DNA of 64,000 nucleotides from the NCBI RefSeq assembly GCF_965641715.1, contig NZ_OZ282453.1, one strand, 5' to 3'. Positions within the stretch are counted from its first letter, which is position 1. Each line of letters begins with the position of its first letter. The translations under genes and the position numbers were made by a program. Below are positions 22,116 to 43,363 of this stretch, piece after piece. The notes under the pieces were generated by a model. It was not told the origin of the DNA and searched no databases. It worked only from the letters and a program-made list of their open reading frames with translations. The DNA is from Escherichia coli. GTDB lineage: Bacteria; Pseudomonadota; Gammaproteobacteria; Enterobacterales; Enterobacteriaceae.

Positions 22116-22445
22116 ATGAGCAATCTGAATCCATGCATGACGTGTGGTGCCTGTTGTGCATTTTTCCGCGTCTCTTTTTACTGGGCCGAAGCCGACGATG
22201 CTGGCGGCACTATTCCCGCCAGGCTCACTGAACAAATATCCCCTTTTCACCGATGCATGAGCGGTACCAATCAGAAAAACCCCCGATGTATTGCCCTTGC
22301 AGGAACCCCGGGCAAAAATGCCTGCTGCACGATATATAAAAATCGATCGTCCACATGCAGAGAATTCGCCATGTCTGGTGAGAACGGAGTCGTCAATGAG
22401 GCTTGCAATCGTGCAAGGGCTAAATACGGGCTGACACCGTTATAA
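22116..22445 (+). CDS. ykgJ: Cys-rich putative zinc/iron-binding protein (YkgJ family)
   Basis: 109 aa; CxxCxxCC cluster at the N-terminus and further Cys pairs. Confidence 0.7.
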
Positions 22446-22646
22446 ACATAAATTAATTGCACTGCCCCGCCAGCGATAATAGCGGGGCTTCGTTTTTCAG
22501 GGGTAACAAAACCCGAAACTTCTTCTATTTGCCAGCAACAATGCCTCTCTTCTGTAGCGTTCTTCGGATCTACATCATCCTAAAGTAGCGCGATATACTC
22601 ACTGACTATCTGAATCAGAATATAAAAAGCAATGTTTTTAACCTAT

Positions 22647-22675
22647 AAAAATGGCGCTGTATTTGCGCCATTTTT
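22647..22675. terminator. Bidirectional intrinsic terminator hairpin (aaaaatggcgc / gcgccattttt)
   Basis: Perfect inverted repeat flanked by an A-run and a T-run, between convergent ykgJ and yagU. Confidence 0.45.
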
Positions 22676-22688
22676 ATCATTCAATGCA

Positions 22689-23303
22689 TTATCTGTTTGA
22701 GCCTAAGGGGATCTCAGGGTCTGGCTCATGAGTAATTCTGTTTCGTAAATCTCTGCGAATAATTTCAATGGACCAGAACCAGACTAAATGTCCAAAAATT
22801 TCAGAAACATTCTCATACCACGGGAGATCAAACAGAGGTGGTGTCAGTCCCATGAGAGGGAATGAAATCATATGAACAAAAAGTTGGGCTAAAGCACCTG
22901 CCAGTAAGCCCTGCCAGAGTTTAATTTTTGGAAATACTTCAGCGACCACACAATAACCGACAGCAAACACTATCGAAAAGATAATGTGCGTAACACCAAC
23001 CCAGTTAAAGACATGCCCGGCAAAGGTATAAACAGCCGCATTGGGATCTGTCAGCCCCAGCCAGTCTCGAAGAAAAATATACGGAGGATTGAGAAAATTA
23101 CGCGAGCAATCAATTTGCCCAGCAGCCCTGATTAATGATTCCGGGCCACACGCTGCATTAAACATATCCACCGGGCTACGTGGCGGCAATGGAACTTCAG
23201 CCCCCCACTTCACAAATGCGGAAACAACGCCAGCAATCAGCCCAATGAATGCAGCAAGACCATAACGTCTGCGGTTCGGTGGAGTTTGTTCAAATATATT
23301 CAT
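22689..23303 (-). CDS. yagU: Inner-membrane protein, DUF1440 family
   Basis: 204 aa with several hydrophobic helices; position between ykgJ and paoA. Confidence 0.75.
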
Positions 23304-23742
23304 ATCTACCCTGCTTGTACCATTATGTTATACACCTCTTTAGGAGTATTCATAAAACAAGGTAAATGTAAAGAACTGTATTGTTTTGTATAACAAGATG
23401 GTTGTCTAATCGCCAAAGAATAGTTGTCTAATCGCCAAAGAATATAAGCACCATCATTTCTCCCTATTTTTATATTAGAAGTGACATAGATTTGCAGGGT
23501 GATGCAGAGCTGACAATCACAGGTTTCCTTATCGGTTTTTGCATCGTACAACTAAAGCAATAAACCAGCTCCCATCATCATCAACATCCCGGCGAACATG
23601 AATTTATTAGCCGGGCTCATAGCTGCATTCGCGTTTTAAGAATAATCCTCCTGCTGTCGCCGACTATGCTTAACGTTTAAAAAAGCATCAGCACTCTCGC
23701 AACGCACTCTTATTTTCCCCTTTAGAATACCGGAGGCCTGGT

Positions 23743-24432
23743 ATGAGCAACCAAGGCGAATACCCCGAAGATAATCGGGTTGGGAAGCACGAGCCGCACG
23801 ATTTTAGTTTGACCCGTCGCGATCTGATTAAAGTGAGCGCCGCAACGGCGGCGACCGCCGTGGTTTATCCTCATTCTACGCTTGCGGCAAGCGTTCCGGC
23901 AGCTACACCCGCGCCTGAGATAATGCCCCTGACACTTAAGGTGAACGGCAAAACCGAGCAGCTTGAAGTGGATACCCGAACCACGCTACTGGACGCTTTG
24001 CGTGAAAATCTGCATTTGATCGGTACCAAGAAAGGTTGCGATCACGGACAGTGCGGAGCCTGTACCGTGCTGGTCAATGGTCGCAGGCTTAATGCCTGCC
24101 TGACGCTGGCAGTCATGCATCAGGGGGCCGAGATCACCACCATTGAAGGACTGGGTTCACCAGATAATCTTCACCCCATGCAGGCGGCCTTTATCAAGCA
24201 TGATGGCTTCCAGTGCGGCTACTGCACCTCCGGGCAAATTTGCTCATCAGTAGCGGTGCTAAAAGAGATTCAGGACGGCATTCCCAGTCACGTCACGGTC
24301 GATTTGGTTTCCCCTCCAGAAAGAACTGCCGATGAGATCCGTGAACGTATGAGCGGCAACATCTGTCGCTGTGGTGCATACGCTAACATCCTTGCCGCCA
24401 TTGAAGACGCTGCGGGGGAGATAAAATCATGA
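23743..24432 (+). CDS. paoA: Periplasmic aldehyde oxidoreductase, 2Fe-2S subunit (Tat-exported)
   Basis: Twin-arginine motif ([17 protein letters not shown]); two 2Fe-2S Cys clusters. Confidence 0.85.
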
Positions 24433-25385
24433 AGGCGTTTACCTATGAACGAGTGAACACCCCCGCCGAGGCGGCACTTAGCGCTCAGCGCGTACCCGGC
24501 GCAAAATTTATCGCGGGCGGGACCAATCTGCTGGACCTGATGAAGCTGGAAATTGAAACGCCCACCCACCTTATCGATGTGAACGGCCTCGGGCTCGATA
24601 AGATCGAAGTGACCGACGCGGGTGGGCTGCGCATCGGCGCACTGGTACGGAACACCGACCTGGCGGCTCACGAGCGCGTGCGTCGTGATTACGCGGTACT
24701 CTCCCGCGCCCTGCTCGCTGGCGCGTCTGGTCAGTTACGTAATCAGGCAACCACCGCAGGTAATCTGCTCCAGCGCACGCGCTGCCCCTATTTTTACGAC
24801 ACCAATCAGCCCTGCAATAAGCGCCTGCCCGGGAGCGGCTGCGCGGCGCTTGAAGGCTTTAGCCGTCAGCACGCGGTGGTAGGCGTAAGCGAAGCCTGCA
24901 TTGCCACCCATCCGAGCGATATGGCGGTCGCAATGCGGTTGCTGGATGCGGTGGTGGAAACCATCACGCCGGAGGGAAAGACTCGCAGTATCACACTGGC
25001 TGATTTTTATCACCCACCGGGGAAAACGCCGCACATTGAAACCGCCCTGCTTCCCGGTGAGCTTATCGTTGCGGTGACGTTACCTCCGCCGCTCGGCGGA
25101 AAACATATCTACCGTAAAGTGCGCGATCGCGCCTCCTACGCCTTTGCCCTGGTATCGGTCGCGGCGATTATTCAGCCTGACGGCAGCGGGCGCGTCGCGC
25201 TGGGCGGAGTAGCACATAAGCCCTGGCGCATTGAGGCTGCGGATGCTCAGCTATCCCAGGGGGCGCAGGCCGTATATGACGCGCTGTTCGCCAGCGCCCA
25301 TCCCACCGCTGAAAACACCTTTAAACTCCTGTTGGCGAAGCGAACGCTTGCCTCCGTACTGGCTGAAGCGAGGGCACAAGCATGA
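24429..25385 (+). CDS. paoB: Aldehyde oxidoreductase FAD-binding subunit
   Basis: 318 aa; CO-dehydrogenase flavoprotein-like; translationally coupled to paoA and paoC. Confidence 0.85.
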
Positions 25386-27580
25386 AATTTGATAAACCCG
25401 CAGGGGAAAACCCGATCGATCAGCTGAAGGTTGTCGGTCGTCCCTATGACCGCATCGACGGACCGCTGAAAACTACCGGCACGGCACGCTACGCCTACGA
25501 ATGGTTTGAAGAAGCTCCCAACGCCGCCTATGGCTATATCGTCGGTTCCGCCATTGCCAAAGGACGCCTCACCGCCCTTGATACGGACGCCGCGCAAAAA
25601 GCGCCGGGCGTACTGGCTGTCATTACCGCCAGTAACGCCGGGGCACTCGGCAAAGGCGACAAAAACACCGCCAGGCTGTTAGGCGGTCCCACTATTGAGC
25701 ACTATCATCAGGCCATTGCGCTGGTAGTGGCCGAGACCTTCGAACAGGCGCGAGCGGCGGCCTCGCTGGTGCAGGCGCACTATCGCCGTAATAAAGGAGC
25801 TTACTCCCTGGCGGACGAAAAACAGGCCGTCAGTCAGCCGCCGGAAGACACGCCCGACAAAAACGTCGGTGACTTTGACGGGGCTTTCTCCTCCGCTGCG
25901 GTGAAGATTGATGCTACCTACACGACCCCGGACCAGAGCCATATGGCGATGGAGCCGCATGCCTCGATGGCCGTCTGGGATGGAAATAAGCTTACTCTCT
26001 GGACCTCAAATCAGATGATTGACTGGTGCCGCACCGATCTGGCAAAAACGCTGAAAGTGCCCGTGGAGAATGTGCGTATTATCTCCCCGTATATCGGCGG
26101 AGGGTTTGGCGGCAAGCTGTTCCTGAGAAGCGATGCGCTGCTGGCGGCCCTCGCCGCCCGAGCGGTGAAACGTCCGGTTAAAGTGATGCTCCCCCGCCCC
26201 TCTATTCCCAATAACACCACGCACCGCCCCGCCACCCTTCAGCACTTGCGTATCGGTGCCGACCAGAGCGGGAAAATCACCGCTATCTCACATGAAAGCT
26301 GGTCTGGAAACCTGCCCGGCGGCACGCCGGAAACGGCGGTACAGCAAAGCGAATTACTCTACGCCGGGGCAAACCGTCATACCGGCCTGCGGCTCGCCAC
26401 GCTTGATTTGCCGGAAGGGAACGCCATGCGTGCGCCCGGCGAAGCCCCCGGTCTGATGGCGCTCGAAATCGCGATCGACGAACTGGCGGAAAAAGCGGGC
26501 ATCGATCCCGTCGAGTTTCGCATCCTGAATGACACTCAGGTTGACCCCGCCGACCCGACGCGCCGCTTCTCTCGCCGTCAGCTTATCGAGTGCTTGCGCA
26601 CCGGAGCGGATAAATTTGGTTGGAAGCAGCGCAACGCCACACCCGGACAGGTGCGCGACGGGGAGTGGCTAGTCGGCCACGGCGTCGCGGCGGGCTTTCG
26701 CAATAATCTGCTGGAAAAATCGGGGGCTCGGGTTCACCTCGAACAAAACGGCACCGTTACCGTGGAAACGGACATGACCGACATTGGCACCGGCAGCTAC
26801 ACCATTCTGGCCCAGACGGCAGCGGAAATGCTTGGCGTACCGCTGGAGCAGGTTGCGGTTCACCTCGGCGATTCCAGTTTCCCGGTTTCTGCGGGTTCTG
26901 GTGGACAATGGGGCGCGAATACCTCCACCTCCGGCGTTTACGCCGCCTGTGTGAAGCTTCGCGAAATGATTGCCTCGGCAGTCGGGTTTGATCCTGAGCA
27001 GTCGCAGTTTGCCGACGGCAAGATTACCAACGGTACCCGAAGCGCCACGCTAAATGAGGCCACCGCAGGCGGCAGACTGACAGCGGAAGAGAGTATTGAA
27101 TTCGGAACACTGAGCAAGGAGTACCAGCAGTCGACCTTTGCCGGGCATTTTGTGGAGGTCGGCGTGCATAGCGCGACGGGAGAAGTTCGGGTCCGGCGTA
27201 TGCTCGCTGTGTGTGCTGCAGGACGCATCCTGAATCCGAAAACTGCACGCAGCCAGGTCATTGGCGCAATGACTATGGGCATGGGCGCGGCACTGATGGA
27301 GGAGCTGGCGGTGGATGACCGTTTGGGCTACTTCGTTAATCACGATATGGCGGGGTATGAGGTGCCGGTCCATGCGGATATCCCAAAACAGGAAGTGATT
27401 TTCCTGGATGATACCGACCCCATATCCTCCCCGATGAAGGCCAAAGGTGTCGGTGAGCTGGGCCTGTGCGGCGTGAGCGCGGCTATCGCCAACGCGGTGT
27501 ATAACGCCACCGGTATTCGGGTACGCGATTATCCCATCACTCTGGATAAGCTGCTCGATAAGCTGCCGGATGTGGTTTAA
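25382..27580 (+). CDS. paoC: Aldehyde oxidoreductase molybdopterin-binding subunit
   Basis: 732 aa; xanthine-dehydrogenase-family large subunit. Confidence 0.85.
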
Positions 27581-27589
27581 GGAGGAACA

Positions 27590-28546
27590 ATGTCATACCC
27601 GCTTTTTGATAAAGACGAACACTGGCATAAGCCAGAGCAGGCGTTTCTCACCGATGACCACCGGACCATTCTGCGCTTCGCCGTAGAGGCGCTAATGTCC
27701 GGTAAAGGAGCGGTGCTGGTGACGCTGGTGGAGATACACGGCGGCGCGGCGCGCCCGCTCGGGGCGCAGATGGTGGTGCGCGAAGATGGTCGTTACTGCG
27801 GTTTTGTCTCTGGCGGCTGCGTGGAGGCCGCTGCCGCTTTTGAAGCGCTGGAGATGATGGGCTCAGGCCGCGATCGCGAAATTCGCTATGGTGAAGGTTC
27901 GCCGTGGTTTGACATCGTTCTGCCCTGCGGCGGTGGGATCACGCTGACGCTCCATAAACTACGCACGGCACAGCCTCTGCTCGCCGTGCTGAACCGCCTG
28001 GAACAGAGAAAACCGGCGGGTCTGCGCTACGATCCGCAAGCACAATCGCTGGTGTGCCTGCCCACGCAAACCCGGACGGGCTGGAATCTCAATGGCTTTG
28101 AGGTGGGGTTCAGGCCATGCGTCAGGCTGATGATTTACGGACGTTCTCTTGAGGCGCAGGCGACCGCGAGTCTTGCAGCAGCCACAGGCTATGACAGCCA
28201 TATCTTCGATCTTTTTCCGGCCTCAGCCAGCGCTCAGATCGATACCGATACGGCGGTCATTTTGCTGTGCCATGATCTCAACCGGGAGCTGCCAGTGTTG
28301 CAGGCCGCGCGAGAAGCAAAACCCTTTTATCTCGGCGCATTGGGCAGCTATCGAACCCACACGTTACGTCTGCAAAAGCTCCACGAGCTGGGATGGTCCA
28401 GGGAGGAGACAGCGCAAATCCGGGCGCCCGTCGGGATATTCCCCAAAGCCCGGGATGCGCATACTCTGGCACTCTCCGTGCTGGCAGAAGTCGCCTCTGT
28501 ACGTCTCCATCAGGAGGAGGATTCATGCCTGCCCCCGTCGTCCTGA
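27590..28546 (+). CDS. paoD: Molybdenum cofactor insertion chaperone (XdhC family)
   Basis: 318 aa; operon position after paoC. Confidence 0.8.
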   Translation: MSYPLFDKDEHWHKPEQAFLTDDHRTILRFAVEALMSGKGAVLVTLVEIHGGAARPLGAQMVVREDGRYCGFVSGGCVEAAAAFEALEMMGSGRDREIRYGEGSPWFDIVLPCGGGITLTLHKLRTAQPLLAVLNRLEQRKPAGLRYDPQAQSLVCLPTQTRTGWNLNGFEVGFRPCVRLMIYGRSLEAQATASLAAATGYDSHIFDLFPASASAQIDTDTAVILLCHDLNRELPVLQAAREAKPFYLGALGSYRTHTLRLQKLHELGWSREETAQIRAPVGIFPKARDAHTLALSVLAEVASVRLHQEEDSCLPPSS

Positions 28547-28657
28547 TCCTTGCGGCCGGGCGTGGAGAGCGCTTTCTCGCCTCTGGGGGAAATACCCATA
28601 AATTAAGAGAAAAAATCTGCAGTAGCCGTTTTAGAAAATCACCTAAATCGTTTAAAA

Positions 28658-28683
28658 GAGCGCCCAACCCATAGTGGGCGCTC
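28658..28683. terminator. Hairpin (gagcgccca / tgggcgctc) between convergent paoD and the MFS transporter gene
   Basis: 9-bp inverted repeat with an 8-nt loop, read directly. Confidence 0.35.
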
Positions 28684-28726
28684 ATCGCCTTGGGTAACTT
28701 ATTCAGCAACGCGCGCCCTCGCCGGA

Positions 28727-29920
28727 CTAAAGCGCACCGGCCTTCTGGCGTGCGGTAACAAAGGTCAGTACGCCCGCGCAAAGGAGCAGCACACTACTCA
28801 TGGCAAACGTACTCTGCCAGCCAAGGCGGTCAAACACGATGCCTCCTGCCGTTGATCCAAGGGCGATTGAGAGCTGAATCACCGCGACCATGAGCCCGCC
28901 TCCGGCTTCGGCGTTGTCAGGCAACGTACGCGCAATCCATGTCCACCATCCGGTTGGCGCGGCGGTGGCCAGCATGCCCCAGAGTCCTAACAGCAGCGAG
29001 ACCGTCCAGACGTGATGCCCGGTAAGCATCAGACCGATGGCAATGACGGCCATCAGTCCGGGTATGGCCATCAGCGTGGGGTAGAATTTTCTGTTGAGAA
29101 ATGTCGAAACAACCAGCGTGCCAATAAAACCGGCCACGCCGATAATCAGCAAAATCAACGACAAGCCTAAGGAATTAACCCGTGTCACCGACTCCAGAAA
29201 CGGGCGCACATAGGTGAATAGCGCAAACTGCCCCATGAAAAACAGGCCACAAGCTATCATGCCGACCACAACCATGCGGCGGCTAAATAAGCGGAATACC
29301 GCGCCACATGACGTGTGGCTTTTATTCGCATCCATGCTGGGCAGACTAATGCACTGCCAGATAAAGGCGACAACCGCCATGGGCACCAGGCACAAGAAAG
29401 CGCCTCGCCATCCGACCGTAGCCCCCAGATAGCTTCCCAGCGGCGCGGCCACGACCGTCGCCAGCGCATTACCGGCGTTGAAAATCGCCAGCGCACGCGT
29501 GACCTGATGCTGCGGCACCAGACGAATCGCCGTTGCCGCTGACATCGACCAGAATCCGCCAATGGCCACACCAATCATCGCACGACCGACCATATACATC
29601 AGATAACTGGTAGCCAGCGCAATAATAAGCCCCGATACGGCCATCAGAACCGTCATCCCCAGCAGCAGGAACTTACGATTCATCTTTCCAGCTAGCGTTG
29701 AAAGCGTCAGGCTGGTCAGAACCGCCAGCGCGCCGGAGATAGCAATCCCCTGCCCTGCCAGCCCCTCCGTCACGCCTAAATCGCGGGTAATCGGCGTGAG
29801 CAGGCTGACGGGCATAAATTCAGAAGCAATCAGCACAAACACGCACAGGGTCATGGCAAAAATACCGCCCCAGTATGCGCGCTGATGATGAGGTGATAGT
29901 GTTTGGCTTAGTGTCGACAT
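28727..29920 (-). CDS. MFS-family transporter
   Basis: 397 aa; about 12 predicted hydrophobic helices. Confidence 0.7.
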   Translation of the reverse strand: MSTLSQTLSPHHQRAYWGGIFAMTLCVFVLIASEFMPVSLLTPITRDLGVTEGLAGQGIAISGALAVLTSLTLSTLAGKMNRKFLLLGMTVLMAVSGLIIALATSYLMYMVGRAMIGVAIGGFWSMSAATAIRLVPQHQVTRALAIFNAGNALATVVAAPLGSYLGATVGWRGAFLCLVPMAVVAFIWQCISLPSMDANKSHTSCGAVFRLFSRRMVVVGMIACGLFFMGQFALFTYVRPFLESVTRVNSLGLSLILLIIGVAGFIGTLVVSTFLNRKFYPTLMAIPGLMAVIAIGLMLTGHHVWTVSLLLGLWGMLATAAPTGWWTWIARTLPDNAEAGGGLMVAVIQLSIALGSTAGGIVFDRLGWQSTFAMSSVLLLCAGVLTFVTARQKAGAL

Positions 29921-29995
29921 AGTGAAATTTCACAAAGATCAGGATAAAAGCCACCGGCCATAGACCGGTGGCTTTGCATCAATTCAGGAGAGGTT

Positions 29996-31132
29996 TTATT
30001 TCAGTTTGGCCTGGAAAAATTGTTCGAACTTCGCGAAAGGTATTTTTCCGGCCACGTTATCGTACAGGTCCACGTGATTTGCTCCTGGTACCACCACCAG
30101 CTCTTTGTCGTTACTGCCAACCACCTTGTAAGCATCTTCAGCAAAATAGCGTGAATGCGCTTTCTCACCGGTCACAATCAGCGTCGGGATGGTGATTTCA
30201 CTGGCGTAGCTCAACAGCGGCATATTCATAAATGACAGCGGCATCGTTGCCGTCCACGCCCCGGTAGAGTTAACGGAACGTTCGTGGAAGCCGCGCGGCA
30301 TGCGATAGTAGTCAAAGAACTCTTTCAGTACCGGATGAGGATTTGCCGGCAGCGTTTCTGGCAGAATACGCTCGCCCGCACTGACCTTGCCGTTGCTATC
30401 GACATTAATATCATGACCACCGTGAGCGAACGTTCCGCTCTGCGCATCCTTCCAGCGCTGTTCATTCAGATATTGCAGAACAGCACGACGGTCGGCGGTA
30501 GAATAACGGTCTTCGCCATCCCCCACACCATGGCCCATCGCCCGGCTCATGTCATACATCACGCTGGTAGCAACCGCTTTAACGCGGGTATCCATCGCCA
30601 CGTCGTTCAGCGCCATGCCACCCCAGCCACAAATACCGAGCAGCCCGATACGGTTGCGATCTACCTCTTTTTGCAGCCCTAAGAAATCCACCGCCGCGCT
30701 GAAATCTTCAGTGTTGATATCCGGTGAGGCGACGTTTCGCGGATAGCCGCCGCTTTCCCCGGTGTAAGAAGGATCGAACGCCAGGGTAACAAACCCTCGT
30801 TCCGCCAGCGTCTGCGCATACAAGCCGCTGGATTGCTCTTTCACCGCGCCAAATGGCCCACTGACCGCAATCGCCGCCAGCTTGCGATCGCCACGGTCTT
30901 TAGGCAGGTAAAGATCGCCCACTAAGGTGATGCCATATCGGTTCGGGAACGATACTTTACGGTGATCGACTTTCTGGCTCTCGGCGAACGTTTTATCCCA
31001 TTTATCGGTCATGGACACAGGGGCATTAGGATTGGTTGAATCAGCATAACTCATTGTCGTGACTCCACTTAATGATGCGAAAAGCAGCATGGCCGGCATC
31101 GCGGTTTTTAGCGTTCGGGTGAAGGCTTTCAT
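29996..31132 (-). CDS. Secreted alpha/beta-fold hydrolase, paralog of the 10276-11196 protein
   Basis: Signal peptide (AMPAMLLFASLSGVTTMSYA); GLLGICGWGG nucleophile elbow; C-terminus LVVVPGANHVDLYD parallels the paralog; start ambiguous (ORF reaches 31153). Confidence 0.6.
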   Translation of the reverse strand: MKAFTRTLKTAMPAMLLFASLSGVTTMSYADSTNPNAPVSMTDKWDKTFAESQKVDHRKVSFPNRYGITLVGDLYLPKDRGDRKLAAIAVSGPFGAVKEQSSGLYAQTLAERGFVTLAFDPSYTGESGGYPRNVASPDINTEDFSAAVDFLGLQKEVDRNRIGLLGICGWGGMALNDVAMDTRVKAVATSVMYDMSRAMGHGVGDGEDRYSTADRRAVLQYLNEQRWKDAQSGTFAHGGHDINVDSNGKVSAGERILPETLPANPHPVLKEFFDYYRMPRGFHERSVNSTGAWTATMPLSFMNMPLLSYASEITIPTLIVTGEKAHSRYFAEDAYKVVGSNDKELVVVPGANHVDLYDNVAGKIPFAKFEQFFQAKLK

Positions 31133-31318
31133 AAAAATCCCCATAAAAAACAACAGAGAGATACAGGTTTCCGACGGACAACGCTGCGGTGCTTTACTTT
31201 GATGGGGTCATTATAGTGAGCAGAATTAGTGCTGATTAGGGGGCGATTAATGCTAAGATTAATACCATATTGTTATAAATTAATGCGAAGATTGCCGGCA
31301 TGAAGGGGGGATGTTTCA

Positions 31319-32203
31319 ATGGCGAAAAGGGAGAACTACAACGAGCTGTACCTGTTTATGCAGGTGGTTCGAGAAGGCAGCTTTACCGCAGCGGCTCAGC
31401 GGCTGGGTCTTGCTCAGTCAGGAGTCAGCCGTTCTGTTCGCGAGCTTGAAGAAAGGCTGGGTGTCCAGCTGCTAGTGCGCACCACGCGTAAACTGTCGCT
31501 GACACAAGCAGGCGAGCAGCTCTACCAGAAGACGGCATCTGGATTTGAAATGTTAGATCTTGGGCTTGCCACACTGGCGCACTATCGAGAGACGCCCTCC
31601 GGCACGGTGCGTATCAATGCCAGCCAGCACGCGATTGATAAATGCCTGCTGCCAAAGCTGGCGGTATTTAAACAGCGATATCCTGATATCCGGCTTGAAC
31701 TGATAAATGAGAGCCGGTTCGTCGATATCATCGAGGAAAGATTCGATGCAGGTGTCCGCCTGGGGCCTGAAGTCGGCCAGGGTATGGTCGCGGTACGCAT
31801 CACGCCCGATATGGAGATGGCAATTGTGGGGACTCCGGAACATTTTCGTCGCTATGGTTTTCCGCAAACTCCGGCGGATTTAAAGGCGCATCCCTGTATC
31901 GCCTATCAGTTTGCCGACGGCAGCGTATACCAGTGGGAACTCAATCAGGATGATAAAAAAATCACTCATCGCCCTGAAGGGCAATGGGCCCTATCCGACA
32001 GCTATATGGAAGCAGAAGCCGCCCGGCTGGGCCTCGGATTGGCCTATGTTCCTGTTGAACTGGTCGCGGATGATTTAGAACACGGTAAGCTTATCAGGGT
32101 GTTGCAGCGTTACAGCCTGCGAATGGAGGGATTGTTTCTCTATTACCCTCATCGCAACGTCTCCCCCGCTCTGCGGATGGTCATTGATACATTGAAAATC
32201 TGA
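31319..32203 (+). CDS. LysR-family transcriptional regulator
   Basis: 294 aa; HTH FTAAAQRLGLAQSGVSRSVR; divergent from the hydrolase/MFS genes. Confidence 0.75.
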   Translation: MAKRENYNELYLFMQVVREGSFTAAAQRLGLAQSGVSRSVRELEERLGVQLLVRTTRKLSLTQAGEQLYQKTASGFEMLDLGLATLAHYRETPSGTVRINASQHAIDKCLLPKLAVFKQRYPDIRLELINESRFVDIIEERFDAGVRLGPEVGQGMVAVRITPDMEMAIVGTPEHFRRYGFPQTPADLKAHPCIAYQFADGSVYQWELNQDDKKITHRPEGQWALSDSYMEAEAARLGLGLAYVPVELVADDLEHGKLIRVLQRYSLRMEGLFLYYPHRNVSPALRMVIDTLKI

Positions 32204-32440
32204 ACGTTAACAACGACCGACTCTTCACTGTGCAATATTGTGTCAGGTAGTCACTCTGCGTTCAATTCCAGGGGCCGCTTTGAGCGAGAAAGAGCGGACT
32301 TATCTGTACAAGGGGACTATCCAGCAATGGAGATCACCCAAAAGAAAAAACTACCTGGCTCCCTCAACAACCTTCATCCGGGAATTTAGCCTCAATCAAC
32401 ATTTTTATATCTGTCAGGTTACTTCATTATGAAAACCGAT

Positions 32441-32705
32441 CAATATCGTTGTTTTTGTTGCAATAGTAGAATACGCGTATTTATTCCTCCATTTCTATTA
32501 ATAACGGCCATAAACTGTTCATTTCACTGATATTTAAAATATGCATCCTTTTCAAGCTGTTCAGCGGCGTAAGAAAACGTATTAAATATGAATTCGACGA
32601 TTTAACCATTTCTGTCTGATTGGTAATCATCTGTGATTAATGCTGGTCTATTGATTACGCCAGCATTAACCGCTTAGGGATGTATTCTTCCTGTTGATAT
32701 ACAGC
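32441..32705 (+). repeat. Degenerate second copy of the ykgR-rpmE2-rpmJ2 locus with the central ~680 bp missing
   Basis: 32441-32546 aligns to 13099-13215 (ykgR 3' end plus downstream); 32550-32705 aligns to 13896-14046 (rpmJ2 last codons plus downstream flank); about 80-85 percent identity by eye. Confidence 0.6.
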
Positions 32706-32903
32706 CTCGAAAAAGAGAGAAAATAAAACTGTGTCCAATATTACTTTACTACTCCAGACCGAAGCATCGGTAGAATTAGCAGAACGACTGGTACAGAAGG
32801 TGGGTATAGCGTCATTTGTCAGGTATTCCATTGCCTGACAAATGACAATTTTGAGTCAATAGACGTGCTTCTTGATCATGTCTTAAAAATTATACCATGA
32901 GCC

Positions 32904-33134
32904 TTATGAAGCATTATTTTTACTGACTGGTGTTAACTTTGCTATCATATAAACTCTGTTCTTAAAAAACGCGCCCAGAATTTTATATGATTTCCCTTGT
33001 TTTTCTGCCTGTAAAGAAATTTCTTTTTCAGTGCTGTTAATGGTTGAACCGACGGCAGTAATCGTTTTGGCGACGCTACTGAATGATAATAAAGACAGTG
33101 CAACCACAACAATTAAAGAACAGATAGTATTCAC
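32904..33134 (-). CDS. Small secreted protein, DUF1471 (BhsA/YdgH/McbA-like) family candidate
   Basis: GTG start 7 nt after an AGGAG Shine-Dalgarno; signal peptide; C-terminal AEKQGKSYKILG resembles the DUF1471 signature. Confidence 0.45.
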   Translation of the reverse strand: MNTICSLIVVVALSLLSFSSVAKTITAVGSTINSTEKEISLQAEKQGKSYKILGAFFKNRVYMIAKLTPVSKNNAS

Positions 33135-33347
33135 GCTAATTCTCCTGACAATTGAGAGGATGAGTTTTATATATAAAGGCATTAAACATGAGTCATGTTT
33201 ACTTCCTGTGAAAATAATCTTTCTGTAATTAAACCCTCATCTCCTTCGGGGTGAGCAATACATAATGCATCTTGCTATGAAAAACACAGGGATATATAAA
33301 TCTTCCTTCTGACCTATTTAATAAAACGTGAATGTAAAAATTATTCT

Positions 33348-34070
33348 TCAGTTTGCAGATGCAGTGGGTCTGATGGTAATTTCGGTTGTATCAACGCTTT
33401 CGGGAGATTCAATAATATGCCTTACCGCACGGGCAATATCCGCAGGTTGAAGTGCAACAGAACGGTAGGCGTCCATTGCCTTCATGGTTTCCACATGGGT
33501 AATGGTTGAAGCCAGTTCACTTTCGACAACGCCAGGATTTACGCAGGTCACACGGATTTTCGAGCTTTCCTGCCGTAAGCCATCAGAAATAGCCCGTACT
33601 GCAAATTTGGATGCACAATAGACTGCGCCTGTGGGCACAACAGAAAGGGCACCAATAGAACCAAGATTGATTATCTGACCGGAACCCTGTGCTTCCATCA
33701 CCGGAAGTACAGCGCCAATTCCCCACAGTACACCTTTGATATTCACGTCAATAGTGAGCTCCCATTCATCCTGTTTTCCTGCTGCAAGCGGTGAAAGCGG
33801 CATAACGCCCGCATTATTGATAAGAACATCAACTCGCCCCCAGCTATCCAGCGCTACTTGCACGAAATCTGCCATGGACTGTCGGTCTGTGACATCCAAC
33901 TCCCGAGCTTTAGCAATTCCTCCTGCGCGGCAAATTTCGGTTGCAATGGCTTCGATACGCTCAACTCTGCGTGCTCCCAGTAAAGTCTTTGCACCTGTCG
34001 TTCCCAGCTCTCTGGCAATACCTTCCCCAATACCACTTGATGCGCCGGTGATTAATATGACCTTATCCAT
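33348..34070 (-). CDS. Short-chain dehydrogenase/reductase (SDR)
   Basis: TGASSGIG Rossmann motif and catalytic YxxxK (YCASK). Confidence 0.75.
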   Translation of the reverse strand: MDKVILITGASSGIGEGIARELGTTGAKTLLGARRVERIEAIATEICRAGGIAKARELDVTDRQSMADFVQVALDSWGRVDVLINNAGVMPLSPLAAGKQDEWELTIDVNIKGVLWGIGAVLPVMEAQGSGQIINLGSIGALSVVPTGAVYCASKFAVRAISDGLRQESSKIRVTCVNPGVVESELASTITHVETMKAMDAYRSVALQPADIARAVRHIIESPESVDTTEITIRPTASAN

Positions 34071-34168
34071 TACGTTCTCCTTCAAATGTGTTCGGAGAGA
34101 GAATAGAACTTTATGATTGGTTCCAGTATCCTGCTTTCAATGTACTCAGTGGTTAGCGGCATTAAACA

Positions 34169-35068
34169 ATGAAAATCGATCTTAATCTTTTACCCATTTT
34201 TATCGCGGTAGCAGAAGAAAGTAATTTTAGTAAAGCCGCCGCACGACTGGGCGTTACCCGTTCAGCGGTCAGTCAGGGAATAAGACGCCTTGAAGATGCA
34301 TTCGGGACAATGCTTGTAATGCGGACCACGCGCTCAGTTAATTTGACGGAAGCGGGAGAACGGCTGCATAAATCGTTGTCATTACCTTTATCCGGTATTG
34401 AGACAGCGTTCGAAGAGATGGTTTCTGATCATGTACCACGTGGACTTCTCAGAATCGCAGTGACGTCAATAGCTGAAGAATTTCTTTCAGGTCCGCTAAT
34501 CGCTTCGTTTGCAGCAGCCAATCCAGCCGTTACGCTTGATATTGTTGTCACGGATGAGGAATTCGATATCGTGGCCGCAGGTTACGATGCTGGCGTAAGG
34601 CTCGGAGAGGTCATTGAAAAAGACATGATTGCTGTGCCCCTTACCGGCAGTCAGCGTGAAATGGTCGTTGCCTCTCCCTCCTATCTCGCAGCCAACAGCA
34701 CACCTGTTCATCCGCGTGAACTTGTGAATCATAAGTGTATCGGCTGGCGTCAGTCCCCGGAGGTTGCGCCTTATCGCTGGCCATTTGAAGAAAACGGGAG
34801 AGCTTTCGACCTTGCGATTGAACCGCAGATTACGACTAATGATCTGCGTCTGATGTTGAGGCTGGCTCTTGCCGGCGGAGGAATAACAATTGCCACTCAG
34901 GAAACTTTCAGGCCGTATATTGAAAGCGGTAAGCTTGTATCTCTGCTTGATGACTTTCTTCCACAATTTCCGGGCTTCTATCTGTATTTCCCACAGCGTC
35001 GCAATATTGCACCAAAGCTCCGCGCCCTGATTGACCACGTCAAGGAATGGCGGCAGCAATTGGCTTAA
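34169..35068 (+). CDS. LysR-family transcriptional regulator
   Basis: 299 aa; HTH FSKAAARLGVTRSAVSQGIR; divergent from the SDR gene. Confidence 0.75.
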   Translation: MKIDLNLLPIFIAVAEESNFSKAAARLGVTRSAVSQGIRRLEDAFGTMLVMRTTRSVNLTEAGERLHKSLSLPLSGIETAFEEMVSDHVPRGLLRIAVTSIAEEFLSGPLIASFAAANPAVTLDIVVTDEEFDIVAAGYDAGVRLGEVIEKDMIAVPLTGSQREMVVASPSYLAANSTPVHPRELVNHKCIGWRQSPEVAPYRWPFEENGRAFDLAIEPQITTNDLRLMLRLALAGGGITIATQETFRPYIESGKLVSLLDDFLPQFPGFYLYFPQRRNIAPKLRALIDHVKEWRQQLA

Positions 35069-35193
35069 ATGTCTGCACCTGCATTGCCTGATGTCAGAAC
35101 AGTATTTTGATTAATTGCCAGGGTTACAATGGCATAAATACGGCACAGGAGGAAACGTGGTGTATTTAAATATGGGGTAACTACTTGATTTAA

Positions 35194-35211
35194 ATGGTGC
35201 CGATAATAGGA
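35194..35211. repeat. attL: 18-bp direct repeat (atggtgccgataatagga) identical to the thrW 3' end at 46821-46838
   Basis: Exact match read directly; marks the island boundary distal to the integrase. Confidence 0.7.
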
Positions 35212-35391
35212 ATAAAATAAAACAATAACATACTGAAAAATATACAAAAAAGAAACACACCGTTAAGTAATGCCCCCGAAAATGCCCCCATAATAGATGC
35301 CGCAGTAAGTCGACTTGTCCCAAGGACTGGTAAGTAATGTCAATAGCGGGAACAAAGAGACATTACTTACCGAGAATGGAATCCATTTAGG

Positions 35392-36621
35392 TTATGCTGG
35401 CCAATCCCACTGCTGATAGGCAGAGAATAGGCGCGTGAGCTCAGCAGGCGCAAGAATATCAACAATATTAGCTCTGTAGCTATGCGATTTACCTAATGGA
35501 ACATTTTCGAAATGATTAGCTTGATAAGGATTAAAATCGTGAAGCTCACCTAATGTTGAGATATCGGTATTAATAGTTTTAAGCCAAGAAACAAGAATTA
35601 CTTTTGCCCCTGTTCTCTGTATGTAAGCTCTTGCCGATTCAAAACTATAGCCTCGAGTTGTTATATCATCTATAAGAAGTACTGTTTTACCAGGGCCTAA
35701 AGGTGGTTTTTTATAGGTAGTTCTAGGATTTCTGTGTGGCTGAGAATTAAGACAAATTGTATTAAGTTGATTGCAATGGTCAATTGCAACTCCCTCATTT
35801 CTTGCTTTTTGAGATTTTTTGGAAGTCGTATGCCTTAAAATAAGATCTGGGATATACGTCTTGCGAAAACATTTTCCAAATATTGAAATCGCTTCATCCA
35901 TGATATTATTCCCATATCCTTGCTTATGCCCTGGATAAACACTAACATAATTAATCATCTTATGAATGCCACTAAAATAGAGACTGGATATTAAGGCACT
36001 CGTCCAAAATTCAGGATGGCCTAATCCATGTTTAGCAGCAGCACGAGCATCTTCAGAGTAAAGAGTATACTCTTCCTTCATGGTGCTGAAAGGAGCAAGT
36101 GCATAGAAATTAAAATCACCATCGTGAATTTCATGACACCAAAGATGCTCTCTTAAACAGAAGGTATCTATAAATCTAGCAATATCTTTAGGGGTTGAAA
36201 ACTCGAAACCATAATCTGTTTTGTCTGCCCACCATGTAGCTCTTAAAAAGAGCAACTCACCATTAACTGCTGTTTGCATGTCGTTTATCGAAGCACCAAT
36301 GTACAAAGTTTCTGTACTTTCCCAACCCATCAAATCAAGGACATATTTTGTAGCATCCGCAGTTGGCTTCCCTGGAATGCTCTTATCTTTCGCTCGACAA
36401 AGATATTTAAATTCTCCCCAATGCTTTTGTAACACATCCTCTAAAGGGGTTCTTTCATCTCCGACAACCCAACCCCTGTTAGTGAATACAACAAACTCGA
36501 TCTTTTTAGTTCTGAAATATCTAATTAATTTATCTACCTCTGCAAAGATTTCGCTATCGATCTTTCCCTTAGGCACAAGAATATCTTCAACACTAAGAAT
36601 CACACCCTTAATTTTGCTCAT
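35392..36621 (-). CDS. Protein with C-terminal phosphoribosyltransferase (PRTase) domain; ShosT-like candidate effector
   Basis: 409 aa; PRPP-binding motif VLLIDDITTRGYSF near the C-terminus; N-terminal ~250 aa unassigned; AT-rich; 11 bp downstream of the DprA-like gene. Confidence 0.65.
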   Translation of the reverse strand: MSKIKGVILSVEDILVPKGKIDSEIFAEVDKLIRYFRTKKIEFVVFTNRGWVVGDERTPLEDVLQKHWGEFKYLCRAKDKSIPGKPTADATKYVLDLMGWESTETLYIGASINDMQTAVNGELLFLRATWWADKTDYGFEFSTPKDIARFIDTFCLREHLWCHEIHDGDFNFYALAPFSTMKEEYTLYSEDARAAAKHGLGHPEFWTSALISSLYFSGIHKMINYVSVYPGHKQGYGNNIMDEAISIFGKCFRKTYIPDLILRHTTSKKSQKARNEGVAIDHCNQLNTICLNSQPHRNPRTTYKKPPLGPGKTVLLIDDITTRGYSFESARAYIQRTGAKVILVSWLKTINTDISTLGELHDFNPYQANHFENVPLGKSHSYRANIVDILAPAELTRLFSAYQQWDWPA

Positions 36622-36631
36622 TTCATCTTCC

Positions 36632-37612
36632 TTAGAGATCTAAGCTCTGCTGTATCGGCTGTGCTTTTAAATCATGATTATTATTCAAAATATAATTACT
36701 CATCTCATTCAATTCAAAAGGCATTAAAAAAGATAAAGAATTTCTATTTTCTTCAGCAAACTTCAATTCTGGTCTACTTTCATACGTAGTAGGAAGATAT
36801 GGACTCGCTATCTTTTTTGCATACTTAAAAGCATAATCAACAGTATGTGATGTTCCACTTTTAATATTCCATTCGACTGGTATTAGTGAATCACATAAAG
36901 CAGCCTGGATTCTGTTACGCCTTACAAAATTTTCTGCGCTATATGTTTGTTCAGGTAGATACTCGGTAACGATAGCCCCACCATTAGAAACTATTGCTCG
37001 ATATAACTCTTTAGAACCTTTCGGATACTCGACAAAAATCCCATTACCCAATACCGCAATAGTTGGAATGCCATATCTCAGCGATTCATAATGACAACAT
37101 TGATCTATTCCTGTCGCCAAACCACTGACTGTTGAAACATCTTTAGAATATAGAGAAGAAACAATCAGTTTTACTAGAAAAATACCATCATCCGTTGGCT
37201 TTCGTGTCCCCACAATTGCAACAGATTTCTTATTAAGAAGTTCATAATTACCATGAACAAAAATCCAAAATGGCGGATCGCTTATGTTCTTTAATGATTG
37301 AGGAAATGTAGCCTGATCATAAAAGGTGAGCACAATACCATTTTTATTGAGTTCACGAGCTCTCTCCAGTCCCTTAGACCAAAGGTCTTGTTGAAATGTT
37401 TCCCAAGATATATTTTTAGGCAAGGAAACTCTTAGATATCCTGCCAAGGCATCAGCTGTATTATCTTTTAATATATTCTTAAATCCAATTTTGGATTGAT
37501 AGATTTTGCGAAGCGTCCAGTAACCAACCCCCTTTAGACAAGTTAAGGCAAGAAACGCAATAATTTCATTTTTCCAAAACTCTCTAACTTCAGTGTAATC
37601 TTTATATTCCAT
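36632..37612 (-). CDS. DprA/Smf-like (SLOG-superfamily Rossmann) protein; ShosA-like candidate
   Basis: DprA signature region (VAIVGTRKPT ... SGLATGIDQCCH ... TIAVLGNGIFVEYP ... FVRRNRIQAAL); start set at the internal Met MEYKDY. Confidence 0.65.
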   Translation of the reverse strand: MEYKDYTEVREFWKNEIIAFLALTCLKGVGYWTLRKIYQSKIGFKNILKDNTADALAGYLRVSLPKNISWETFQQDLWSKGLERARELNKNGIVLTFYDQATFPQSLKNISDPPFWIFVHGNYELLNKKSVAIVGTRKPTDDGIFLVKLIVSSLYSKDVSTVSGLATGIDQCCHYESLRYGIPTIAVLGNGIFVEYPKGSKELYRAIVSNGGAIVTEYLPEQTYSAENFVRRNRIQAALCDSLIPVEWNIKSGTSHTVDYAFKYAKKIASPYLPTTYESRPELKFAEENRNSLSFLMPFELNEMSNYILNNNHDLKAQPIQQSLDL

Positions 37613-38027
37613 TTTACGTTTGCCTTTTAGATTACAACCCGTACTCAACACAAAAAATTTAGAAAATTGTTGCCAAAAGCATATTATAAATAGCATCTTA
37701 CCGCAGATTTGTGAAGCAACAACATCCCTAGGAGAAACCTTAACCTAGCGGGACAACTTACTGACCAATCCTCAGCTAGCTCATTGAATTGCCCCCATAT
37801 CGCACAGCCCCGCACGCCTGCCCGCTTCGCTTAACAGACTGGTTTTCATGCACCTCATAAATCGTCTCAGAAGCCACCAAACAAGGGCTTTCTCGTCAAA
37901 AATGGTGCATAAGACTCATGCGTTTTCATGCGCCATAGACATGCACTCATGCGCTCTCAGGCCAGCCAGGGAAAAGGTGTTAAAAATCCCGGTACTCGAC
38001 CGGGATTACGTAGGCGTTTTTTTCTAA

Positions 38028-38300
38028 TCAGACAGGAATCTGCTGACGGCTTGACAGTTTTGACGCGGAGCCATAGCGATTGAGCGTTTGCTGTTGTTTT
38101 ACCGGGGTTTGTGATTTGTCTGGTTCCTGTTCATTGCGCCGGGGTTTCATGATTATCTTATCCACACTCTCCAGTGCCGTAAATGTGCAGGAACATTCCA
38201 GATTCTGGCACTGATACCACGAGCGTTTAACTGACGGAGCTTCATAGGCTGCTGTTCTGGCGTGTGCAACTGTACCGCATTCCGGACATTTAAGTGCCAT
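38028..38300 (-). CDS. Ogr/Delta-family zinc-finger late-gene activator
   Basis: CPECG...(H)...YQCQNLECSCTF zinc-finger spacing as in P2 Ogr / P4 Delta. Confidence 0.75.
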   Translation of the reverse strand: MALKCPECGTVAHARTAAYEAPSVKRSWYQCQNLECSCTFTALESVDKIIMKPRRNEQEPDKSQTPVKQQQTLNRYGSASKLSSRQQIPV

Positions 38301-38305
38301 TAATA

Positions 38306-38857
38306 TCACTCCTGTATATCGTTAATGTCATTCAGGCGTTGCTGAAAACGCAGATGTTGTGCCGGGGTGTAAGAGCCCTGGCAATCACGAATCATACTGG
38401 GGTCAGGCATCAAACCGGATTCATCCAGGATCTCACGATAATCCCCGGCAATTTCAGGCGGTGTTATTGCCAGCTGGCGAACCAGAGCACTGCGTAATAT
38501 ACGGGACGCAACGTCAACCCCTCCGCGCCCCTTCAGGAACGGAGCCAGTGCAGATGTCAGGGCTGCCCCATTCGCCTGCATAAAATTGCTGAGAGCGGCT
38601 TCTGTGCAGGCCTCCATCAGTAAATGCTGCGAGTAAATGCATTCGCGCGCAGCACAGTTAATTTGCCATTTCAGCACATCCAGACGTTCCCGCAGGAATT
38701 CGAGCTGTCGGGCATAATCTGCTGGTTTTTCTGTGGCAGCGAGGAGAGATGTTATCTGTTGTTCAACGGCTTTTCGGCTCTCACTATGTCTGGCCCACAG
38801 AATACGGGCATTCCGAAAACTGGTAAGTACCTGGTCAGGTGTGCCTCGGGCCGTCAT
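38306..38857 (-). CDS. Psu-like (polarity suppression / capsid decoration) protein
   Basis: 183 aa; resembles my recollection of P4 Psu (LKWQINCAAR ... FMQANGAALTSALAPFL); overlaps neighbours by 4 bp. Confidence 0.55.
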   Translation of the reverse strand: MTARGTPDQVLTSFRNARILWARHSESRKAVEQQITSLLAATEKPADYARQLEFLRERLDVLKWQINCAARECIYSQHLLMEACTEAALSNFMQANGAALTSALAPFLKGRGGVDVASRILRSALVRQLAITPPEIAGDYREILDESGLMPDPSMIRDCQGSYTPAQHLRFQQRLNDINDIQE

Positions 38858-39597
38858 ACTGCTTTCTCCTTCTCAGCAAGTTCCTGACGAACCTTTATTT
38901 TATGCATAGCTGCTGGAGAGAGTTGATTACTGAAATCCAGACGCGCCGCATAATCCGGGGCAACTCCCGCCAGTTTAAACACCGGGTCCTGTTCAGGCAT
39001 CGCATCGTTAGCCAGAGCCGGTCTGGTGATATGTTTATGAATAAAGTCTTTCAGCACTGTGTCCGGGTCATTAACTGAATTCACCACACCCACAACGGCA
39101 CTGGCTTCCCGGCCCATTGTGGATTTAAGCAGGCTCAGCGTCTGAATAAGCGCTTTTCCATGCGACTGCATAAAATCCTCCCAGATTTGTTTTGCGCGAA
39201 TATCCACAAGAATGTTATGCGCGTGGATATACTTTCCGGCTAATTCCGCAGCTTTCTGCGGCAAAAGTGCATTTTCGCTTTCCTGAGCCGCCAGCAGCTC
39301 ATCAAAATCCTCAAGCGTTTCTCGTCCCAGCGCAATTTCCGTGCGCAGTTTTTTCATTTCCTTTGAGACCACGCCCTGACTTTCACGAAACAGCGTGCGC
39401 CACTCCTCATTCAGTGTATTCGTCGTGGATTCCATTTCAGCGCGACGCTGGCGGATTGTCGCAATATTATCCGCTGCCGCTTTCTGCTGACGACGTGCTT
39501 CAAGCCATGCGTTTCTGGCTGTGTTCATGGTTTCCAGTGCCCGCTGCGTTACAGCCGGAAAAGTGGAAAGGTTGTTATTCACTGCGGTGTTGTTCAT
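38854..39597 (-). CDS. Sid-like (capsid size determination) protein candidate
   Basis: 247 aa; Psu/Sid-fold-like segment; position upstream of psu-like. Confidence 0.45.
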   Translation of the reverse strand: MNNTAVNNNLSTFPAVTQRALETMNTARNAWLEARRQQKAAADNIATIRQRRAEMESTTNTLNEEWRTLFRESQGVVSKEMKKLRTEIALGRETLEDFDELLAAQESENALLPQKAAELAGKYIHAHNILVDIRAKQIWEDFMQSHGKALIQTLSLLKSTMGREASAVVGVVNSVNDPDTVLKDFIHKHITRPALANDAMPEQDPVFKLAGVAPDYAARLDFSNQLSPAAMHKIKVRQELAEKEKAV

Positions 39598-39776
39598 GAC
39601 TTCTCCTGTCGGGTTGGTTCGTTACGTCAATTGTGTCGTGGCTGACACAAGCACACTATCGGTGCTCAGTGTGTGGTGGCTGGCACAACGGGCGCTTGCG
39701 GTTATTCAGACGTGGCTATGAAAGCCAGCCAGATAAAAATGCCCACTGTTTCAGTCTGCTTTATGTCCCTGATGCG

Positions 39777-39964
39777 GTGGAACAGGTGAAACATGTGTTA
39801 CAGCTTTGTTTTATAAATCATTTATATACACTGCACCGGTGGAACATCGCGGGTAACAAGGTGGAACAGCGGATTGGCTGGCGTTACATCTGTTCCACCT
39901 CACTATTTCAGAAGGTGGAACAGGTTCAGCCCCTGTAAAATACGGTTGTTCCACCTGTTTCACC
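39777..39964. repeat. Iteron cluster: at least 8 copies of GGTGGAACA / TGTTCCACC (and GGTGAAACA variants) in both orientations; candidate replication region
   Basis: Copies at 39777, 39785, 39838, 39860, 39891, 39914, 39947, 39956; similar to the P4 type-I iteron TGTTCACC; immediately 3' of the alpha gene. Confidence 0.55.
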
Positions 39965-39998
39965 TGTTACCCTTAATAAATAAGACTCACGCAAAGCC

Positions 39999-43332: not shown

Positions 43333-43363
43333 CGTGGATTACTCCGTTTTCAGCGGTATTTTG

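Follow-up and report, generated by a model that had tools for sequence, protein, structure and literature searches.

A relic of ykgR and ykgO in Escherichia coli and its relation to a short haplotype of the ykgR locus

In a stretch of 64,000 nt of Escherichia coli DNA (contig NZ_OZ282453.1), which as a whole is referred to as the window, we analyzed a remnant located at about 32433-32695. This remnant, here called the ghost, is homologous to parts of the intact ykgR-ykgM-ykgO (rpmE2-rpmJ2) locus at about 13 kb of the window, the primary locus, whose genes ykgM and ykgO are Zur-repressed zinc-independent paralogs of the ribosomal proteins L31 and L36 (PMC9825181, PMC7363858). We consider it very probable that the ghost is a non-functional homologous relic whose scar is common to a short haplotype of the region, and we make this judgement jointly with the statement that it has no apparent present function. 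By short haplotype we mean a complete ykgR followed by the scar and the same right-hand genes, without a block of 19,343 bp at the locus. As to the direction of events we lean, with some reserve, towards the ghost being the remnant of a short-haplotype ykgR that was disrupted when the long block was joined on. It would then be an ordinary pseudogene or rearrangement scar which marks where two old chromosome arrangements were joined.

Structure and occurrence of the remnant

The ghost has a total length of 263 bp and consists of two segments which directly adjoin each other (32549/32550), whereas their counterparts in the primary locus are separated by 683 bp (13207-13889). When 32400-32750 was compared with the window by BLASTN, repeat A (32433-32549) aligned without gaps to 13090-13206 on the plus strand, with 108 of 117 positions identical (92.3%, E = 9e-44). 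Repeat B (32550-32695) aligned to 13890-14035 with 116 of 150 columns identical (77.3%), seven gap openings and E = 3e-18. No third copy was found in the window beyond the ghost itself and the primary locus. Repeat A comprises ykgR codons 12-33, the stop codon and 48 nt of 3' flank; repeat B comprises the final 11 codons of ykgO (rpmJ2) and the ykgO terminator. An earlier reading of this DNA, made from the sequence only, had described a decayed homologue of the locus with the ribosomal-paralog genes deleted. The alignments, with 683 bp missing between them, bear this out; the matches it reported stand and only their boundaries were a few bases off.

The left end of the ghost is an illegitimate junction at 32432/32433, 229 nt past the stop codon of a LysR gene (31319-32203). 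From there the ykgR pseudogene fragment (32433-32501, plus strand) runs through codons 12-33 to the TAA stop and reads KPINIVVFVAIVEYAYLFLHFY. Its intact counterpart is the annotated ykgR of the primary locus (13057-13158, plus strand; 33 amino acids (aa), PF28062). The 33 nt of codons 1-11, with the start codon, and the promoter are absent from the ghost, and no complete 33-codon open reading frame (ORF) is left: an in-frame TGA (32430-32432, plus strand) precedes the ykgR-homologous frame and no in-frame ATG, GTG or TTG exists, the ATG at 32429 being unrelated junction DNA in a different frame. The loss of the ykgR start had been explained by a frame offset, which does not hold, as the homology begins at codon 12 and the copy is 5'-truncated at the junction. 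The C-terminal transmembrane segment, ending in NIVVFVAIVEYAYLFLHFY and the stop, is kept with 21 of 22 residues as in the primary YkgR, and five synonymous and one non-synonymous difference separate the two genes. In the ancestral ghost allele all 22 residues equal the primary ones; Leu13 is kept in alleles L003 and L004.

Downstream of the fragment, 32502-32549 (plus strand) is homologous to the 48 nt 3' of the primary ykgR (13159-13206), with 45 of 48 positions identical, and ends at the deletion junction. The scar itself (32549-32550) reflects an original loss of about 675 bp (Zur box, ykgM and ykgO codons 1-35); the window allele has lost another 9 bp. Beyond it lies a degenerate ykgO tail (32550-32585, plus strand) of 11 codons and a stop, FQAVQRRKKTY, in which 7 of 11 residues equal the primary ones; in this point the sequence-only reading was accurate. 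The homologue of the ykgO 3' region and terminator follows (32586-32702, plus strand): the main hairpin is kept (about 32633-32673, stem ATTAATGCTGG/CCAGCATTAA), the first hairpin is degenerate and the U-tract is absent. In the primary locus repeat B (13890-14042, plus strand) carries the ykgO tail and a two-hairpin terminator with U-tract, and overlaps the 3' end of the minus-strand ykgL.

The segment missing from the ghost (13207-13889, plus strand) holds the ykgR hairpin, the Zur box (13492-13513), ykgM (13519-13785) and ykgO (13785-13925) up to codon 35. Accordingly the 46-codon ORF of rpmJ2/ykgO (type B L36, PF00444) is not intact in the ghost, only its final 11 codons remaining, and no coding sequence for rpmE2/ykgM (type B L31, PF01197) is found, as the whole gene falls inside the 683-bp gap and no tblastx signal appears in the flanks. 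The Zur palindrome GGTTATGTTATAACATAACAGG is absent upstream of the ghost; allowing up to three mismatches, its sole copy in the window is the one at 13492-13513. Compared with the primary locus the ghost is thus homologous in the C-terminal half of ykgR, the ykgR 3' flank, the ykgO tail and the terminator hairpin. It lacks the Zur box, ykgM and the start and promoter of ykgR, and can neither be zinc-regulated nor make a ribosomal protein.

We give virtually no weight to the explanation that the similarity is a chance AT-rich resemblance or a dispersed repetitive element. The AT-richness of the region is all that speaks for it. Against it stand the E values of both alignments, the lack of a third copy in the window, the conservation of the YkgR frame at the codon level and, in a genus-wide scan, the occurrence of the YkgR C-terminus in Escherichia only at these loci. 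Likewise a repetitive extragenic palindrome, a miniature inverted-repeat transposable element or an insertion sequence (IS) remnant was rejected: the window holds two copies, the 5426 complete E. coli genomes searched have a median of one and a maximum of two places per genome, and no Rfam family was matched over 31000-34000 at a permissive threshold. An identity below 70% and a multi-copy element had been named in advance as the cases that would speak against homology; both identities lie above that value and the element is not multi-copy. The flanks show no wider paralogy at the DNA or protein level (tblastx of 5-kb flanks; BLASTP of ykgL against the 92-aa neighbor of the ghost), which limits any duplication to about 265 bp or less. 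Two alpha/beta hydrolases (10276-11196 and 29996-31153) were considered as an extension of the repeat and dismissed, being only about 32% identical, a family-level similarity.

The two copies of repeat A lie in direct orientation about 19.3 kb apart, flank ecp and pao, as had been proposed with a spacing of about 19 kb, and share perfect runs of 17 and 22 nt. RecA-dependent deletion calls for repeats of the same orientation that are near-identical over at least 25-50 bp, and repeat A offers 117 bp at 92% identity. The pair could therefore delete the 19-kb block.

At its primary locus the window is 99.4% identical to O145 RM9872 and hence E. coli-like. The 601 bp around the ghost are present in 919 of the 5426 genomes, in one to two places each. 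In the record of BW25113 (K-12) the primary query found one place only, so that there is no second copy of repeat A. The left junction CATTATGA|AAAC was the same in 11 of 11 distinct ghost alleles (20 loci), which indicates a single origin of the truncation, and among the loci examined the truncated form is confined to E. coli-type sequence. In every RefSeq E. coli record inspected, the Prokaryotic Genome Annotation Pipeline labels the ghost as a pseudogene, 'small membrane protein YkgR; incomplete; missing N-terminus' (for example ECSP_RS34325 in O157:H7 TW14359 and G6Z93_RS17645 in PapM-32-1), within the order paoD, MFS, alpha/beta hydrolase, LysR, ghost, 92-aa hypothetical gene, SDR, LysR. 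This pseudogene is the same 69-nt fragment at the same locus, with the LysR gene on one side and the 92-aa hypothetical gene on the other. Its annotation covers the ykgR fragment only, and this part is already public; the ykgO tail, the deletion scar, the terminator homology and the relation to the short haplotype are unrecorded there. What is new is the occurrence of this scar, with these right-hand genes, beside a complete ykgR. In the literature on ykgR, ykgM, ykgO and the cryptic clades we found no description of the ghost remnant.

When the back-translated YkgR C-terminus was searched in one genome per GTDB species, matches were obtained only in Escherichia and in two contaminant contigs. 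The latter, a 403-bp contig of Sulfoacidibacillus thermotolerans Y002 (L006) and a 264-bp contig of Alkalicoccobacillus porphyridii P16 (L010), match the ykgR region of E. coli at 98% identity and almost certainly represent E. coli DNA contaminating the two assemblies. The ykgR-ykgMO region also gave 13-14 matches on records classed as plasmids. A ykgMO query found a second partial place in about 300 genomes, which we do not count as true second copies, as the sole example inspected is a 78-nt stub before the insertion of a P4-like satellite. An intact second ykgM/ykgO (rpmE2/rpmJ2) at the syntenic site, for which a search had been suggested, was found in no genome among the E. coli genomes and Escherichia loci examined.

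Short haplotypes with the scar and an intact ykgR

For the search for short haplotypes a chimeric query was used, in which the primary left flank, ykgR and repeat A were joined to repeat B and the right flank of the ghost. It matched contiguously in 3 of the 5426 E. coli genomes, namely 6EVA, wlxctx60 and GF4-3. The locus and its flank annotation were inspected for 6EVA and GF4-3, and wlxctx60 is counted on the search match alone. In both inspected genomes the order is fdeC, intact ykgR, the 92-aa gene, SDR, LysR and further on thrW and proA. Their loci (L011 for 6EVA, L012 for GF4-3) align to 12930-13206 and 32433-35119 of the window, repeat A taking part in both alignments, and relative to them the window carries exactly 19,343 extra bases (13090-32432). 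This block contains the 3' part of ykgR, ykgM, ykgO, ykgL, ecpRABCDE, ykgJ, yagU, paoABCD, and the MFS, alpha/beta hydrolase and LysR genes. The housekeeping flank of 6EVA and GF4-3 is 98.5-98.8% identical to the window, which makes both of them E. coli proper.

The short haplotype is found outside E. coli as well. E69, a separate GTDB species representative whose proA-frsA segment is about 93% identical to the window, carries ghost-type sequence. The six loci of its lineage hold proA, LysR, SDR, a small hypothetical gene, the scar with the terminator remnant and a complete 33-aa YkgR (PF28062) with promoter; beyond ykgR follow genes for an Oxidored_FMN (old-yellow-enzyme-type) oxidoreductase and a hydrolase, whose counterparts in the window stand ahead of ykgR. 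At the ykgR locus all six are without ykgMO, ecp and pao. The short haplotype is likewise present in a lineage represented by Escherichia sp. KTE114 (three loci) and in an assembly labelled E. fergusonii (proA-frsA, as housekeeping flank, 95.6% identical to the window). In every non-coli lineage with the scar (E69, KTE114-like and L046) ykgR is full-length and the 19-kb block is absent at the locus. The right-hand neighbors are common to ghost and short haplotype: a BhsA-like small protein, the SDR oxidoreductase, a LysR regulator and then thrW-proA.

The ghost of the window thus has the same scar, the same right-hand neighbors and a similar B-type terminator region (84-94% identity) as the short haplotypes of E69, the KTE114-like lineage, L046, 6EVA, GF4-3 and wlxctx60. 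It differs from them in ykgR, which in the short haplotype is complete, has a promoter and is the sole copy, while in the ghost codons 1-11 are replaced by the end of the 19.3-kb block, which carries an intact ykgR of its own. In other words, an insertion of 19,343 bp between ykgR codons 11 and 12 of the short haplotype would give the arrangement of the window. That recombinant deletions might occur between the repeats had been raised before; the arrangement they predict does exist in 3 of 5426 E. coli genomes and in three other lineages, and such a deletion is one possible origin of it.

The least-altered form of the scar, CCTCTCCCT|GCTTTTCAAG, was found in L047 and L048 of the KTE114-like lineage and places the original deletion at about 13213-13887. 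At the scar 6-9 nt that are missing from the window allele are kept in the ghost of PapM-32-1 (L001), in 6EVA, in GF4-3 and in the E69 lineage, 9 nt in the three E. coli alleles. The presence or absence of these 9 bp is polymorphic among ghost and short alleles and does not agree with the flank tree. In GF4-3 (L012, about 12285-12310) a 9-nt unit, TTCAAGCTG, is tandemly triplicated exactly at the scar. Escherichia lineages whose identity to the window is about 89-93% have the same scar, which is therefore old, and the great age assumed in the earlier reading is thereby upheld. Old, too, is the adjacency of ykgMO to ykgR, as the order ykgR-ykgM-ykgO-ykgL-ecp occurs in the divergent lineage of L007 and L036 and ykgR-ykgM-ykgO in E. 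albertii. The L036 locus is truncated by a prophage.

The fdeC-thrW segment in Escherichia accordingly exists in two old structural haplotypes, one with ykgM/ykgO, ecp (E. coli common pilus) and the Pao aldehyde oxidoreductase, the other without all of them at the locus; the usual E. coli arrangement would be a composite of both. The cryptic lineages and rare E. coli with the short haplotype are probably without ykgMO, ecp and pao. The scar may therefore serve as a simple sequence marker for typing Escherichia lineages, flagging those that probably lack these genes.

Sequence history and the order of events

The two repeats have different histories. Repeat B is at odds with the species tree: its ghost and short copies cluster across lineages with 84-94% identity and are only 70-73% identical to the primary repeat B, and the primary copies of E. 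coli and L007 are 78% identical to each other. Repeat A tracks the species instead. The motif ACGGCAATAAACTGTTC is E. coli-specific and common to primary, short and ghost copies, whereas short copies of the cryptic lineages keep the ancestral ACRTCAWAAAACAATT, as do the outgroup primaries. Repeat A has therefore been homogenized within E. coli, by allelic recombination or gene conversion, which explains the identity of 92% in repeat A as compared to 77% in repeat B.

Substitutions within ykgR were then compared at five codons. Ten sampled primary ykgR alleles of E. coli all read ATT14 GTC20 ATT22 GCC26 TTT29, all ghosts read ATC GTT ATA GCG TTC, and the E. coli short-haplotype ykgR reads ATC GTT ATA GCC TTT. 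All five differences fixed between the ghosts and these ten primary alleles are synonymous, in contrast to the changes private to single ghost alleles, of which six are non-synonymous and one is synonymous (Fisher p = 0.015). The derived synonymous states ATC14 and ATA22 are common to the E. coli short ykgR and the ghost; GCG26, TTC29 and CACTG are specific to the ghost and absent from the short form. A homoplasy-free tree is obtained with the primary form branching first and short and ghost forms as sisters. On the ghost branch 4 of 4 ykgR changes are synonymous, with a probability of 0.002 under neutrality. This indicates that the ghost ykgR was once under selection, remained full-length after its split from the primary allele and was truncated later. 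Substitution patterns in a fragment of 22 codons can thus tell the functional phase of a pseudogene from its decay phase.

We propose the following course of events. Ancestral Escherichia would have held both a long (ykgR-ykgMO-ykgL-ecp-pao and further genes) and a short (ykgR-scar-92-aa gene and further genes) haplotype, and in the E. coli lineage a short-haplotype chromosome would have received the long block by recombination. One end of the join may have been a homologous crossover in the left flank and ykgR, the other an illegitimate one that linked ykgR codon 12 to DNA 229 nt past the LysR gene. The 3' half of the resident ykgR and the scar would thereby have been stranded as the ghost, which would have decayed neutrally since. 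Repeat A may have been held at 92% by recombination between the ykgR alleles of both haplotypes within E. coli, and repeat B, isolated by the scar, would have diverged to 77%. The only present role of the ghost would be that of a short direct repeat able to mediate the loss of the 19.3-kb block.

Four points weigh against this course. Short haplotypes are very rare in E. coli (3/5426), as secondary deletions between the repeats would give, and in a neighbor-joining tree of 2.5 kb of right flank they are nested among ghost-bearing alleles and are not basal. A duplication of 117 bp left inside the homologous anchor is an unusual product of homology-facilitated illegitimate recombination. The donor arrangement, the long block followed by the 92-aa gene without a ghost, was found in no genome. 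Lastly, heteroduplex patch repair in a single crossover could also give the mosaic repeat A of the short haplotype. Flank trees are weak evidence, since recombination in the interval is rampant and loci such as L037 and L038 are mosaic. These two loci (same genome type, 99.98% identical) are 76-91% identical to the window in ykgR-ykgMO-ecp, like the divergent L007 lineage, and 96-99% from about ykgJ/yagU on (pao, MFS, hydrolase, LysR and ghost), which suggests an introgression breakpoint between ecpE and yagU. The LysR neighbor is 80-90% conserved across many Enterobacterales with all Escherichia in one cluster and is uninformative on the ancestral arrangement.

The rival course begins within one chromosome. 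Before E. coli and the cryptic clades separated, the LysR 3' flank would have been joined to ykgR by a tandem duplication of about 19.3 kb, and the second copy would have been mostly deleted, first from ykgL to LysR and then in ykgMO, to leave the ghost; the short haplotypes would be independent secondary RecA-dependent deletions between the copies of repeat A, kept similar by intragenomic gene conversion. Junctions such as the one between LysR+229 and ykgR codon 12 most commonly arise by tandem duplication, whose join point can lie anywhere. The rarity of E. coli short haplotypes and their nested position would be as expected, there is a deletion hotspot downstream of ykgR, and the long vertical inheritance of both forms of repeat B in E. 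coli is simplest if they resided in one genome. A copy truncated at birth, however, predicts neutral changes in ykgR, at odds with the synonymous-only ghost branch. Moreover, the short repeat A is ghost-like on its left and primary-like on its right, the reverse of what a simple crossover gives. This course also requires no fewer than four separate deletions (in E69, the KTE114-like lineage, L046 and E. coli), and a ghost is retained in none of the non-coli lineages. A variant in which a full-length second ykgR was truncated later evades the objection from synonymous changes at the price of further events, and none of the 919 ghost-bearing genomes shows an intermediate. We regard a duplication as possible and rather unlikely.

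The remnant of an alternative haplotype fits better than a copy truncated at birth, because every non-coli lineage with the scar has an intact ykgR and no 19-kb block and because the ghost branch is synonymous only. Of the ancient duplication assumed in the sequence-only reading, duplication is therefore just one of two possible origins, and the disfavored one. Relics of tandem-duplication joins and scars of homology-facilitated illegitimate recombination likewise consist of a gene fragment abutting unrelated DNA with short direct repeats around a large block. Either mechanism may have made the junction of the ghost, and neither was observed directly.

Junction reading frame, hairpin and neighborhood

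The left junction created an ORF of 33 codons on the plus strand, from the ATG at 32429 to the TGA ending at 32530, which encodes MKTDQYRCFCCNSRIRVFIPPFLLITAINCSFH and reads the ykgR remnant in another frame. Its ATG comes from the LysR-side DNA, and the change from ATT to ATC removed a stop in its frame. We asked whether the ghost has a present function, with this ORF as a small protein gene or the hairpin acting on the flanking LysR or BhsA-like genes by terminating transcription or stabilizing RNA, and find this improbable. The ORF is open in 7 of 8 translated ghost alleles, and the other three distinct alleles share its TGA stop. Four substitutions private to O157 are all synonymous in its frame, and its polymorphisms amount to 6 synonymous and 6 non-synonymous ones against an expected ratio of about 1:3.5. 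This excess, however, is not significant given three frames and many lineages. No convincing Shine-Dalgarno sequence precedes the ATG, the nearest candidate being an AGG 12 nt upstream; a promoter scan found no promoter-like site upstream in the ghost, and one allele group has lost the stop codon. If translated, the ORF would yield a protein that is small, Cys-rich and hydrophobic and has arisen de novo out of a pseudogene, which we hold to be very improbable.

As to the hairpin, its 10-bp stem is unchanged in most alleles and lineages. It folds at -22 to -26 kcal/mol with z = -2.95, compared to z = -5.95 for the primary terminator. The sequence after the hairpin is AACCGCUUAGGG when the plus strand is read and AUCACAGAUG when the minus strand is read, so that a U-tract, which the primary copy has, is present on neither strand, and no terminator was called by the scan. 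The left arm is mutated in L020 and L021, and in many strains an AbiEi/AbiEii island cuts the ghost inside the hairpin with no apparent consequence.

The only terminator-like site between the ghost and the 92-aa gene is a hairpin with a perfect 15-bp stem (32811-32846, plus strand) followed by AATTTTGAGT. The first 10 nt of its left arm are also found in the short haplotypes of E. coli, L046 and the E69 lineage with at most one substitution, and the alignments stop inside that arm. The 92-aa gene itself (32904-33182, minus strand) occurs almost only in Escherichia and Shigella and has been called BhsA-like (multiple stress resistance protein) in one source. Because of differences at the N-terminus it is annotated with lengths between 62 and 92 aa. 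Divergent homologues (67-80% identity) proved to be E. coli alleles shortened at the N-terminus, with an ordinary ghost nearby.

Rearrangements accumulate just after ykgR and around the ghost (L009 9924-10370, L045 2430-2580, L019 6075-6790, L004 4345 and L003 4483). Besides the AbiE island these include, in Escherichia sp. E1V33, a fusion of the ykgR hairpin with DNA that lies downstream of the second LysR gene, in one E. coli a P4-like satellite (ogr/psu/retron) 78 nt after the ykgR 3' flank, in another an IS1 75 nt into the LysR 3' flank, and in an ST131-like strain an integrase island after a LysR fragment. Further downstream tRNA-Thr(CGT) thrW (46822-46897, minus strand) adjoins proA. Between the second LysR gene and thrW the window carries about 11.6 kb of extra DNA (35200-46800) with an integrase-sized ORF (45467-46726); this DNA is absent or different in short-haplotype and other loci and is probably an island integrated at thrW.

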